IMG/VR virus record: IMGVR_UViG_2917398303_000002
Location: 1-40,825 of that record
Direction: 5' to 3' (one strand)
Source: a virus
Lineage: Duplodnaviria; Heunggongvirae; Uroviricota; Caudoviricetes
DNA length: 40,825 nucleotides
A model generated the notes under the pieces. That model did no database searches and was not told where the DNA came from. It worked only from the letters and a program-made list of their open reading frames with translations. Shown here piece by piece: positions 23,659 to 40,308 of the stretch. A program made the translations under genes and the position numbers. The number at the start of each line of letters is the position of its first letter. Within the stretch, counting starts at the first letter, position 1.

Positions 23659-23734
23659 TGGTGCTGGTTAACGGACTTGAACCGCTACCCATTCGCTTAC
23701 AAGGCGACTGCTCTACCATTGGAGCTAAACCAGT
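23659..23734 (-). tRNA. tRNA-like gene, predicted anticodon UGU (Thr)
   Basis: Hand-folded cloverleaf: D stem GCTC/GAGC, anticodon loop CTTGTAA, T arm AGCGG-TTCAAGT-CCGTT, 3' ...AACCAGC-A-CCA; position 1-72 mismatch. Confidence 0.55.
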
Positions 23735-23739
23735 ATATT

Positions 23740-23814
23740 TGGCGGGACAGCGTGGACTCGAACCACGATAAGAAGGTTAACAGCCTTCCGTAATGACCTT
23801 TATACGACTGACCC
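23740..23814 (-). tRNA. tRNA-like gene, predicted anticodon GUU (Asn)
   Basis: Hand-folded cloverleaf: anticodon stem GAAGG/CCTTC with loop CTGTTAA, T arm CGTGG-TTCGAGT-CCACG, 3' CTGTCCC-G-CCA; one acceptor mismatch, short D stem. Confidence 0.55.
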
Positions 23815-36967: not shown

Positions 36968-37162
36968 ATGCCGAACGATAAACAGTATGTTTGGTGTTGG
37001 GGTAAGTCTTACGGCTGGACTGAGTGCGATACCTTCGAAGGGTATTACGATTGGTCGAGAAACAAATGGTGGGCAGTTACTGACGATGGGGAAGAACCGG
37101 CATCGAAAGTAACCCACTGGATGCCACTACCAGAGCCGCCGCAGGAGGTTAACCGTGGCTAA
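36968..37162 (+). CDS. Hypothetical Trp-rich protein (64 aa)
   Basis: ORF. Confidence 0.35.
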   Translation: MPNDKQYVWCWGKSYGWTECDTFEGYYDWSRNKWWAVTDDGEEPASKVTHWMPLPEPPQEVNRG

Positions 37163-37194
37163 CCTGCAACTTGCCGTCAAAGGTGAATAACAAT

Positions 37195-37220
37195 CCTCGC
37201 ACTCGCGGGGATTTCTTTTA
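37195..37220 (+). terminator. Candidate rho-independent terminator
   Basis: CCTCGC-ACTC-GCGGGG (one G-U pair) followed by T-rich ATTTCTTTTAT. Confidence 0.35.
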
Positions 37221-37262
37221 TCTGAACTCGCTACGGCGGGTTTTGTTTTATGGAGATGATAA

Positions 37263-37430
37263 ATGCACTTCCGAGTCACAGGTGAATGGAATGGAGAACC
37301 ATTCAACAGAGTTATCGAAGCCGAGAACATCAGCGACTGCTATGACCACTGGATGCTGTGGGCGCAGATAGCAAATGCAGACGTAACCAATATTCGAATT
37401 GAAGAACTGAAAGAACACCAAGCCGCCTGA
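37263..37430 (+). CDS. Small hypothetical protein (55 aa)
   Basis: ORF not in track (MHFRVTGEWNGEPFNRVIEAENISDCYDHWMLW...), followed by strong terminator. Confidence 0.3.
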   Translation: MHFRVTGEWNGEPFNRVIEAENISDCYDHWMLWAQIANADVTNIRIEELKEHQAA

Positions 37431-37442
37431 TGGCGGTTTTTT
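37423..37442 (+). terminator. Rho-independent terminator
   Basis: CCGCC-TGAT-GGCGG followed by TTTTTT. Confidence 0.6.
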
Positions 37443-37452
37443 ATTGCCTGAT

Positions 37453-37468
37453 TTGCAGGTTCGATTCC
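37453..37468 (+). other. tRNA-Arg (argW)-like T-arm fragment, not part of an intact tRNA
   Basis: TTGCAGGTTCGATTCC matches variable-loop/T-stem/T-loop of argW as recalled, but downstream sequence diverges. Confidence 0.5.
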
Positions 37469-37487
37469 CTATTCGGAGATAGCACTC

Positions 37488-37688
37488 ATGCAACACGAAC
37501 TACAACCTGATTCACTGGTTGATTTGAAACTCATCATGGCCGATACTGGCTTCGGTAAAACCTTCATCTATGACCGGATTAAGTCCGGAGACCTGCCTAA
37601 AGCCAAAGTTATCCACGGGCGAGCAAGATGGTTATATCGTGACCATTGTGAATTCAAAAATAAGCTCTTAAGCCGCGCCAATGGGTAA
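37488..37688 (+). CDS. torI: TorI-like excisionase / recombination directionality factor (AlpA-Xis winged-helix fold)
   Basis: 66 aa MQHELQPDSLVDLKLIMADTGFGKTFIYDRIKSGDLPKAKVIHGRARWLYRDHCEF...; matches E. coli TorI as recalled; terminal position next to att core. Confidence 0.8.
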   Translation: MQHELQPDSLVDLKLIMADTGFGKTFIYDRIKSGDLPKAKVIHGRARWLYRDHCEFKNKLLSRANG

Positions 37689-37761
37689 AATAGCGGGTAA
37701 AATATTTCTCACACCTAAAAAACACCATTCTAATCAATCCCCTGCCACGTCAAGTAGATGT

Positions 37762-37776
37762 CTGCAGGGGACACCA
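37762..37776 (+). other. Candidate att core (right prophage junction, shared with downstream island): 3'-terminal 15 nt of tRNA-Arg (argW)
   Basis: CTGCAGGGGACACCA equals the T-stem 3' strand/acceptor 3' strand/CCA end of argW as recalled. Confidence 0.5.
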
Positions 37777-37940
37777 TCCCGCCGTACACCAACGTCTACC
37801 ATTGTCTATAAATCCCATGTAACCATATAGAAATAAAGAGATTTTATTCTCATGACGTCCATTACCGTCTATTGAAATCAAGTAAATCTATGGGGCATAA
37901 TTGGGGGCATTGCTGGTTCGATTGTATATGTGCCCCCAAT

Positions 37941-39227
37941 ATGTCCAGAAATACCCTCAACAAATTAACAGACCGTCAGTGCAAAACAGCTAAGCCACGA
38001 GACAAAACTTATAAATTGTCTGATGGTGGTGGTCTTTATCTTGAAGTATCCCAGACCGGGTCGAAGTATTGGCGTATGAAGTATCGCCGTCCATCAGATA
38101 AGAAAGAAGACAGACTTGCTTTTGGTGTATATCCAACCATTAGCTTACAAGATGCCAGAGAGAAACGAGACAACGCCAGAAAGTTGTTAGTCAAGGGGAT
38201 AGATCCCAAAGCAGAGCAAAGAGCAGCCAAAGCAGAAGAAAAAGGTGCATTCACTTTTGAGACAATAGGACGTCAATGGGTTGAAAGCCACCAGATGTGG
38301 AACGAAGCCCACCGAAAACGCGTGCTTAGAAGCCTTGAAATGTATATTTTTCCTCACATTGGCAACTCGGATATTCGCAAACTGGAGGCGATGACAATTT
38401 TACCTTTGTTTAAGAAGGTAGATGACGCAGGGAAACACGATACAGCTAACCGACTTAAACAACGAGTAAAGGACATCATACATAGTGCCCGTCTGAGCGG
38501 CATTAAGACAGAAATTATCACGAATGATCTCGATGTCCGGTTAATGCAATATGAAACTAAGCATCATGCCGCATTACATCCCAGAGACCTACCAGACTTT
38601 TTCACTCGATTGGGAAGTTTTAGAGGTAATCCTCTTACCCGCCTTGCCATTGAGCTAACCATGTTGACCTTTGTTCGTTCAAGCGAGTTAAGGTTTGCCC
38701 GTTGGAAAGAGTTTGACCTTGATCGGGCTGAGTGGATTATCCCTAAAAAAAGAGAGCCTATCGATGGTGTGAGGTTTTCCACCCGTGGCACAAAGACGGG
38801 AAAAGACGAACATATCGTGCTTCTTAGCCGTCAGGCTGTTTCTATTGTAAAGCAGTTGAGAGAACTAAGCGGAAGCTACGATGTTGTGTTTCCGAATGAA
38901 AGAAACACCAAAGGCGTGATGAGTGAAAACACAGTAAACAAGGCATTACGTTTAATGGGATATAACACGCAAGAGGACGTAACTGGACATGGATTCCGTG
39001 CCACAGCTTGTAGTTCCTTGATGGAGTCCGGTTTGTGGCAGGAAGACGCAGTAGAGCGCCAGATGAGCCACAAAGAATATAAAGACGTTAAAAGAGCCTA
39101 CAAGCACAAGGCTGATTACTTAGAAGAGCGCAAACTAATGCTTCAATGGTGGGCAGATTATCTGGACGCCAATCGAGAAATACATATAAGCCCTTACGAG
39201 TTCGGAAGGAGAACACGCCGTGACTAA
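37941..39227 (+). CDS. Tyrosine integrase, P4 family (start placed at MSRNTLNKLTDRQ..., upstream in-frame Met codons less likely)
   Basis: LTDRQCKTAKPRDKTYKLSDGGGLYLEV...YWRMKY arm-binding motif; C-terminal HGFRAT...LMLQWWADYLD catalytic region. Confidence 0.85.
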   Translation: MSRNTLNKLTDRQCKTAKPRDKTYKLSDGGGLYLEVSQTGSKYWRMKYRRPSDKKEDRLAFGVYPTISLQDAREKRDNARKLLVKGIDPKAEQRAAKAEEKGAFTFETIGRQWVESHQMWNEAHRKRVLRSLEMYIFPHIGNSDIRKLEAMTILPLFKKVDDAGKHDTANRLKQRVKDIIHSARLSGIKTEIITNDLDVRLMQYETKHHAALHPRDLPDFFTRLGSFRGNPLTRLAIELTMLTFVRSSELRFARWKEFDLDRAEWIIPKKREPIDGVRFSTRGTKTGKDEHIVLLSRQAVSIVKQLRELSGSYDVVFPNERNTKGVMSENTVNKALRLMGYNTQEDVTGHGFRATACSSLMESGLWQEDAVERQMSHKEYKDVKRAYKHKADYLEERKLMLQWWADYLDANREIHISPYEFGRRTRRD

Positions 39228-40116: not shown

Positions 40117-40308
40117 ATGAAAAAGTCGCTGATTCGGCTATCTGAGGTTTTGAAACGCACTGGCTATAGCAAGGCGTGGGTATATGCTCTGATGAGCCGA
40201 GGACAATTCCCTCAATCAGTCAAGATTGGTGCTCGCGCAATAGCTTTTATTGAAAGCGAGATCGATGACTGGATCGATCAACGTATAGCCGAATCGCGTA
40301 GTAACTAA
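40117..40308 (+). CDS. alpA: AlpA-family transcriptional regulator / excisionase-like protein
   Basis: 63 aa; ...LIRLSEVLKRTGYSKAWVYALMSRGQFPQSVKIGARAIAFIESEIDDWI... is the AlpA HTH signature. Confidence 0.8.
   Translation: MKKSLIRLSEVLKRTGYSKAWVYALMSRGQFPQSVKIGARAIAFIESEIDDWIDQRIAESRSN

Follow-up and report, generated by a model that had tools for sequence, protein, structure and literature searches.

We propose that the region around positions 37453 to 37777 of the window, meaning the whole 40,825-nucleotide stretch of viral DNA analyzed here, forms the attR end of a P22-like prophage equipped with an IntS-TorI recombination module of the KplE1/HK620/Sf6 type and located in tandem with an integrase island at the tRNA gene argW. 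We consider it likely that the upstream one of the two argW-like fragments found here (fragment 1) is an inherited part of this module and marks no junction. The composite att region is real, and it is explained by a known module, a known core, and the tandem use of a known hot spot. The att core at 37762-37777 and the tandem array at argW put forward in the preliminary description of this DNA were upheld, whereas its proposals that fragment 1 is tied to the tandem history and provides an alternative crossover were not.

Starting at the intS start codon, the window spans the P22-like prophage, torI, the attR core, and then the P4-like integrase island. Its body is a P22-like (Lederbergvirus) prophage whose structural genes are 96.6% identical to those of Escherichia phage APC_JM3.2, the closest phage, and whose right end aligns with Sf6, HK620, and their relatives at 96-98% identity. 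The prophage integrase gene intS (1-1158, + strand), which marks the attL end, encodes a 385-residue protein with the Pfam domains Arm-DNA-bind_3, Phage_int_M, and Phage_integrase that shares 382 of its residues with K-12 IntS (99%). Position 1 coincides exactly with the intS start codon, such that argW and attL lie just upstream, outside the window, and it is for this reason that ARAGORN detected no argW gene within it. The resemblance to the module that KplE1 (CPS-53), HK620, and Sf6 carry at argW extends to the integrase (99%), TorI (98.5%), the 16-nt core, the P-arm repeats, and the torI leader including fragment 1, as well as to the placement of attP between xis and int, which leaves the two genes at opposite ends of the prophage. 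What differs is that the module sits here in a full-length P22-like prophage and that attR adjoins the island rather than dsdC, with TCC alone shared with the K-12 flank after the core. Two neighboring tRNA genes, tRNA-Thr(TGT) and tRNA-Asn(GTT), are also found within the prophage (23659-23814, - strand), and the Kapi1 paper reports two tRNAs directly ahead of the lysis module in a related phage.

Alignment to the intact argW sequence of E. coli K-12, our reference throughout, shows that both of the tRNA matches claimed earlier are exact. Fragment 1 (TTGCAGGTTCGATTCC, 37453-37468, + strand) is a copy of argW nt 46-61, comprising the end of the variable loop, the 5' strand of the T-stem, the T-loop, and the first two bases of the 3' T-stem. 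The downstream match, fragment 2 (CTGCAGGGGACACCA, 37762-37776, + strand), is a copy of nt 61-75 and comprises the 3' T-stem, the acceptor strand, the discriminator, and CCA. Each sequence occurs once in the window, and the two are co-linear on the same strand and adjoin in tRNA coordinates with a one-base overlap. They would thus jointly rebuild the 3' half of the tRNA, as had been described, with the 293 nt between them holding torI. Exact argW matches reached at most 14 nt in 300 shuffled versions of the window, and a chance origin of the two fragments is thereby excluded. The interval of 165 nt given earlier between fragment 2 and the ATG of the island integrase gene, int2, at 37941 is likewise correct.

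Fragment 2 together with the following T forms the 16-nt attR core, CTGCAGGGGACACCAT (37762-37777, + strand), the identity block for IntS strand exchange. The same sequence is annotated in K-12 as the argW pseudogene pawZ and in HK620 and Sf6 as the "attP core", and the 16-nt core of the KplE1/HK620/Sf6 module has been published (PMC2951348; PMC8787464). From ~37437 to 37777 the window aligns base for base with the attR or attP halves of K-12, HK620, and Sf6. Over ~37437-37779, only scattered point differences separate the window from K-12 and E. coli 7/2, and the three diverge past ACCATCC into either dsdC-side DNA or island DNA. Homology to phage-only genomes ends exactly after the 16-nt core, and the att core earlier placed at 37762-37776 is thus real, with one further base. 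For annotation this means that, on the right, these prophages truly end at the 16-nt core past torI and not at the T-arm repeat before torI. Among the IMG/VR loci fetched for torI, about 30 of 80 end 3 nt past its stop codon, ~75 nt short of the attR core. It should also be noted that a 49-residue open reading frame (37681-37830), a homologue of HK620 hkaB and Sf6 gene 17, starts in the stop region of torI and crosses the att core, with its 3' part here made up of island DNA. Integration necessarily alters the C-terminus of this hkaB-like frame, which argues against a real gene.

Between the two fragments lies torI (37488-37688, + strand), which encodes the recombination directionality factor, or excisionase, with 65 of its 66 residues identical to HK620 HkaC/TorI (98.5%). 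The product matches the solved TorI structure (PDB 1Z4H), and the same locus is annotated torI in E. coli relatives. The gene is on the same strand as the core, from which its end is separated by 73 nt, and it lies just inside attR, at the end of the prophage opposite intS. A first scan of IMG/VR with TorI returned near-identical copies only. Two direct repeats of GGGTAAAAT (37683-37691 and 37695-37703, + strand), identical to those of K-12 attR, follow at the end of torI. The IntS arm-type sites on attL have a common TAAA motif (PMC2951348), and the repeats carry this motif of the P' sites and lie inside the 135-bp attR, which suffices for excision in vitro and is delimited by an inner primer at the torI 3' end (PMC3509656). 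By analogy, we regard the repeats as putative arm-type sites of IntS in the P arm.

Comparison with empty-site, single-occupancy, and double-occupancy genomes bears out the earlier proposal that a P22-like prophage and a P4-integrase island occupy one tRNA in tandem and have a common core. All four states of argW, that is, empty, phage only, island only, and both, were seen among E. coli genomes. The empty site, reconstructed as argW plus the K-12 right flank (argW-dsdC), is uninterrupted in 938 of 5,426 complete genomes, and the phage is present alone in K-12 and NU14. In E. coli A16 the same island, with a 23-nt repeat at its borders, comes immediately after argW, and the DNA that lies past the core in the window (TCCCGCCGTACACC...) adjoins the tRNA gene there. 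Both elements are present in E. coli 7/2, in the order yfdC, argW, intS, prophage, torI, core, int2 island, 23-nt repeat, and csc genes. The island was found in 238 genomes and the torI-core-int2 junction in 24. The argW-dsdCXA region of E. coli is known to be variable (Moritz and Welch 2006, as cited in PMC8787464 and PMC9659370). In A16 and 7/2 the 23-nt island repeat, TTCGATTCCTGCAGGGGACACCA, extends in argW terms from the first base of the T-loop to CCA, and its far copy would fall beyond the end of the window. The left repeat in the window reads GATGTCTGCAGG rather than TTCGATTCCTGCAGG, with its T-loop part replaced by the phage P arm, which we ascribe to insertion of the phage between argW and the island, trimming the left repeat of the island from 23 nt to the shared 16 nt.

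We propose the following sequence of events for the formation of this array. In the free phage, attP would lie between torI and intS, and IntS would have recombined it with the 3' end of argW within the 16-nt identity, placing intS beside argW (window position 1) and torI beside the displaced core (37762-37777). The argW copy used would already have had an island of ~8-10 kb downstream, with its own P4-like Int2 and the repeat TTCGATTCCTGCAGGGGACACCA, such that the phage would have come to sit between argW and the island. Excision by TorI and IntS should then remove only the phage and rejoin argW to the island. The island would probably have no precise exit while the phage is present if Int2 crosses over in the T-loop, a position for which the extent of the repeat is the sole guide, and strand exchange at the left edge of the repeat was reportedly described by Williams in 2002 as usual for tRNA-targeting integrases. 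The island may thus be locked until the phage leaves, its left repeat having lost the T-loop part. The preliminary description had also expected that the two elements could excise jointly, and this finds no support: the distal end of the island has no P arm for IntS, and the arm sites of Int2 lie 40 kb from argW rather than beside it, such that excision of the pair would have no obvious substrate. As in other tandem arrays at one tRNA, successive insertions into the regenerated tRNA 3' end have left partial tRNA repeats between the elements. What differs here is that the identity blocks of the two integrases are nested and measure 16 nt and 23 nt, and it is because these blocks are of unequal length that the later insertion trims the repeat of the earlier element. 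The locus offers a clean natural series (empty, phage, island, and both) at one tRNA gene, in which nested repeats may allow one element to lock the other in place.

The island begins in the window with a left arm (37778-37940, + strand) that is the sequence directly following argW in A16, and continues with int2 (37941-39227, + strand), for which the ATG at 37941 is the start annotated in 7/2 and A16. The 428-residue product, a P4-like tyrosine integrase, has the Pfam domains Arm-DNA-bind_3, Phage_int_M, and Phage_integrase, belongs to PHROG 1 (integrase), and shares the three-domain architecture of IntS at 32% identity. A promoter scan placed a promoter-like site (TTGAAA-18-CATAAT) at 37872-37901 upstream of int2, and no obvious Shine-Dalgarno sequence was seen before the gene. 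Also upstream are arm-type-like direct repeats TGGGGCAT (37891-37898) and TGGGGGCAT (37902-37910) and an inverted ATGTGCCCCCA (37928-37938) that ends 2 nt before the int2 ATG. Integrases of leuX islands are preceded by the same layout, which suggests that the repeats are arm-type sites overlapping the promoter and leader of int2, with autoregulation of the kind shown for IntS. The repeats surround TTGCTGGTTCGATTGT (37910-37925), which is T-arm-like with three mismatches and was considered as a parallel tRNA relic. We rejected this candidate on the grounds that the integrases of leuX islands have the same repeat-loop-repeat architecture, their loop reading TTCGATT or TTCGATG as against TTCGAGT in the leuX T-loop.

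The P4-likeness of the island rests on domains, and P4-like tRNA islands such as those at leuX have the same domain architecture, an int gene ~165 nt from the tRNA end, and a promoter and arm-type-like GGGGGCAT repeats ahead of the start codon. Unlike the leuX islands, the one described here targets argW and has a repeat that runs from the first T-loop base to CCA. Further downstream in the window, an AlpA-family gene (40117-40308, + strand; Pfam Phage_AlpA, 3.6e-18; PHROG "excisionase and transcriptional regulator") is a candidate excisionase or regulator. The A16 island, of 7.95 kb, contains int2, the AlpA-family gene, a replication protein, cargo genes, and a serine recombinase. Its conserved left part (int, a 246-residue open reading frame, AlpA, small HTH genes, and the replication protein) is followed in these islands by variable cargo, which consists of two large hypothetical proteins (330 and 821 residues) in 7/2 and of a GTPase-domain protein in A16, and a serine recombinase gene closes both islands. 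In its layout, the island is reminiscent of satellites or PICIs, with a slot for exchangeable cargo.

Fragment 1 had been viewed as possibly the relic of an older crossover site or an alternative one. That it is such a relic, or a still active att site in the argW T-arm, might be thought from the way in which the two fragments adjoin in argW coordinates, and the repeat of the neighboring island starts in the T-loop, which suggests that T-loop crossovers occur at this tRNA. In addition, the record of prophage CUS-3 (E. coli RS218, CP000711) assigns both its "attL core" and its "attR core" to precisely this 16-mer, where the record stops. CUS-3 has the same IntS-type integrase and attL, and its right end is 100% identical to window positions 37420-37468, but its record differs in placing the att cores at fragment 1 and the argW T-arm and in omitting torI and the canonical core. 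Its attL continues with TGCAGGGGACACCATTTATCAG into the IntS-type integrase, as does the attL of K-12, and in a chromosome that matches the CUS-3 right end at 100% identity, torI and then dsdC come next, which places the real end at the canonical core. The CUS-3 att assignment is very probably an artefact of seeking the longest direct repeat. Moreover, fragment 1 is present with the same flanks in the single-occupancy K-12 KplE1, HK620, Sf6, and CUS-3, its central motif is kept across genera, as a neutral relic would not be, and it lies outside the 135-bp attR that supports excision in vitro (PMC3509656). Neither the deletion junction argW(1-61)::torI nor a contiguous junction of fragment 1 with TGCAGGGG was found in the 5,426 E. 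coli genomes or in IMG/VR. We consequently give the crossover reading very little credence, and as a site in use it is largely refuted. The query made of fragment 1 plus TGCAGGGG was covered in 13 genomes by two pieces 410 bp apart, which correspond to an intact attP (torI-core-P' arm-intS), the simplest reading of which is tandem IntS-type prophages. One of the hits is a 12.7-kb circular "plasmid" record (NZ_CP146940.1), a P22-like phage fragment in attP configuration with several pseudogenes.

Judged from its distribution and conservation among the sequences compared, fragment 1 is a standard conserved part of the IntS-TorI prophage type rather than a peculiarity of this locus, and purifying selection acts on it. 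Its center, the 12-nt AGGTTCGATTCC (37457-37468), is a leader motif found family-wide in TorI-type excisionase genes. In a survey of TorI-family excisionase loci, which took one genome per species plus sequenced phages, the block (C)AGGTTCGATTCC(C) lay 20-37 nt upstream of the excisionase start codon in lineages of about ten genera. These are Escherichia, Citrobacter, Enterobacter, Kluyvera, Phytobacter, Serratia, Pantoea, and Edwardsiella, together with Salmonella (phage g341c) and Erwinia (phages Midgardsormr38 and phiEt88). Of all non-coding stretches in an alignment of 15 lineages, whose excisionases are as little as 35% identical, GTTCGATTCC is the most strongly conserved, with eight of its ten columns invariant and the other two nearly so. 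In Midgardsormr38 the motif CAGGTTCGATTCCC occurs twice in tandem with a 16-nt period, directly before the ribosome-binding site of the excisionase gene (2485-2514 of that locus). The full tRNA match of 16 nt is confined to the E. coli lineage, and its extra TTGC may be due to chance or may come from a TTGC box. The block is cleanly absent from three loci (L099, L116, and L117), which lack ~25 nt between TTGCCTG and GAGG, and also from Chronis and EhrS_49, where the upstream region is different. The existence of such relatives indicates that the block is selected but dispensable. All motif-bearing lineages target the same tRNA, and the motif is absent from the few relatives that may use another target (Pantoea L124 and L128, Yersinia L113-115).

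The boundary of the conserved module is consistent with this assignment. A terminator-like hairpin with a T-run closes the early-left genes (37420-37446, + strand; terminator scan), and among 54 distinct copies from the E. coli lineage the variability drops to near zero from ~37437 onward. This drop indicates that the module begins ~16 nt upstream of fragment 1, inside the T-run of the terminator. The "bsq2" boundary sequence of Sf6 starts at the equivalent of 37445 and coincides with the start of the module. The same 54 copies have too little variation anywhere in the module to bear on fragment 1 itself.

We propose that the torI leader probably has in fragment 1 a regulatory element of tRNA origin, which would act in cis on TorI synthesis, by way of an integrase half-site, an RNA hairpin, or both. 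According to the proposal of the KplE1 authors, it is mainly through the RDF gene, and thus TorI synthesis, that excision is controlled (PMC2951348). The reading that we prefer, though only tentatively, is that of a half-site for the core-binding domain of the integrase. An imperfect inverted repeat, GATGTC/GACACC, in attP led us to take TGCAGGG as the overlap region, and AGGTTCGATTCC consists of the tRNA bases that adjoin this proposed overlap, such that the block would equal the left core half-site of attB. The left core sites of attP are T-loop-like in many relatives, with TTCGATGTA preceding TGCAGGG as compared with TTCGATTCC preceding TGCAGGG in the tRNA. Furthermore, lineages that differ in their arm-type and TorI-position repeats but share the target all keep the block unchanged, which fits a site for the core-binding domain. 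With some doubt, fragment 1 might instead, or in addition, be the 5' side of a weak hairpin in which the ribosome-binding site of torI is occluded. In RNA, the ribosome-binding site GGAG (37475-37478, + strand) can pair with UUCC of fragment 1, and GGUU can pair with AACC ahead of the torI AUG. The UUCC:GGAG pairs are kept in 11 to 14 of the 15 lineages, depending on the pair. The predicted hairpin is weak, with a consensus energy of -1.3 kcal/mol, z-scores of -0.8 to -2 (+0.8 in one lineage), and almost no covariation, although covariation says little where both strands are conserved. A search of positions 37000-38100 against Rfam at a permissive threshold gave nothing relevant.

Regulation of a different kind is implied by the annotation of HK620, in which a predicted "promoter, phage integration" maps to window positions 37443-37481 and a cII binding site, TTGCCTGATTTGC, to 37444-37456 (+ strand), where it overlaps the first 4 nt of fragment 1. 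Sf6 carries the same promoter and cII annotation by homology. Fragment 1 would on this basis be the spacer of a cII-activated P_I promoter that drives the integrase across attP in lysogenisation, and its likeness to the tRNA would be incidental. The intrinsic terminator just upstream would make sense of a separate promoter here, and 13 nt lie between the second TTGC and TATTCG, the same spacing as in lambda P_RE. However, the repeat in E. coli is TTGC-N5-TTGC and not N6, and in other motif-bearing lineages the second TTGC is out of register (TTCC, or N4) or missing. The candidate -10 is poor, and the promoter scan gave no sigma-70-like site here. The region thus departs from a cII-dependent promoter in its TTGC-N6-TTGC repeat, in a usable -10, and in conservation. 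Promoter spacers, moreover, are not normally the most conserved block, and the 12-16-nt identity to the target tRNA would be left unexplained. We consider the promoter spacer to be an unlikely account of fragment 1.

The TorI sites on attL read GTTCG, GATCG, and GTCCG (PMC2951348), and the AGGTTCGAT within fragment 1 resembles site I4 (TGGTTCGCT), as would be expected if TorI bound the GTTCG of fragment 1 as an operator and autoregulated torI. The conservation, however, spans 12 nt and not the 5-nt motif of TorI. In addition, phiEt88, with an excisionase of just 35% identity, retains AGGTTCGATTCCC even though its P' arm has GATGTAAC/GCGTTAC repeats at the places of the I sites. Since the motif is kept in phiEt88 despite these differing repeats, we rejected the operator, which is very unlikely. 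It is improbable as well that fragment 1 lacks a function today, having arisen by chance or persisted as a neutral fossil. The absence of fragment 1 from some functional-looking relatives and the success of excision in vitro without it would both be compatible with such a fossil, but chance is excluded by the shuffles, eight of ten columns are invariant among lineages with diverged flanks and with coding sequences down to 35-50% protein identity, and the motif is tandemly duplicated in Midgardsormr38.

Returning to the preferred half-site, we speculate that the 12-nt T-arm copy is either a working mimic of the left half-site of attB, which would gate excisionase synthesis via the core-binding domain of the integrase or via the phage RNA, or a fossil of the insertion of xis and the P arm into an ancestral attP consisting simply of a tRNA 3' half. 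We hold this pair of possibilities to be a minority view even among our own readings, and a deep tRNA origin of fragment 1 is possible. If the mimic is a working one, the choice to excise would be read directly from a copy of the target tRNA, and in the case of either mimic or fossil, a well-studied module would contain an undescribed conserved element in about ten enterobacterial genera. In the KplE1 literature, excisionase expression is named as the main control point of excision (PMC2951348). The conserved tRNA-like leader block provides a cheap and specific target for studying how this expression is controlled. The deep conservation of a tRNA-like block in the excisionase leader may be previously undescribed, and we regard it as a modest lead. 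Contigs labelled as Actinomycetes (L097) and Parachlamydiaceae (L111) MAGs also carried enterobacterial-type torI modules, with 83-89% protein identity and the leader motif present, and these probably represent binning contamination.
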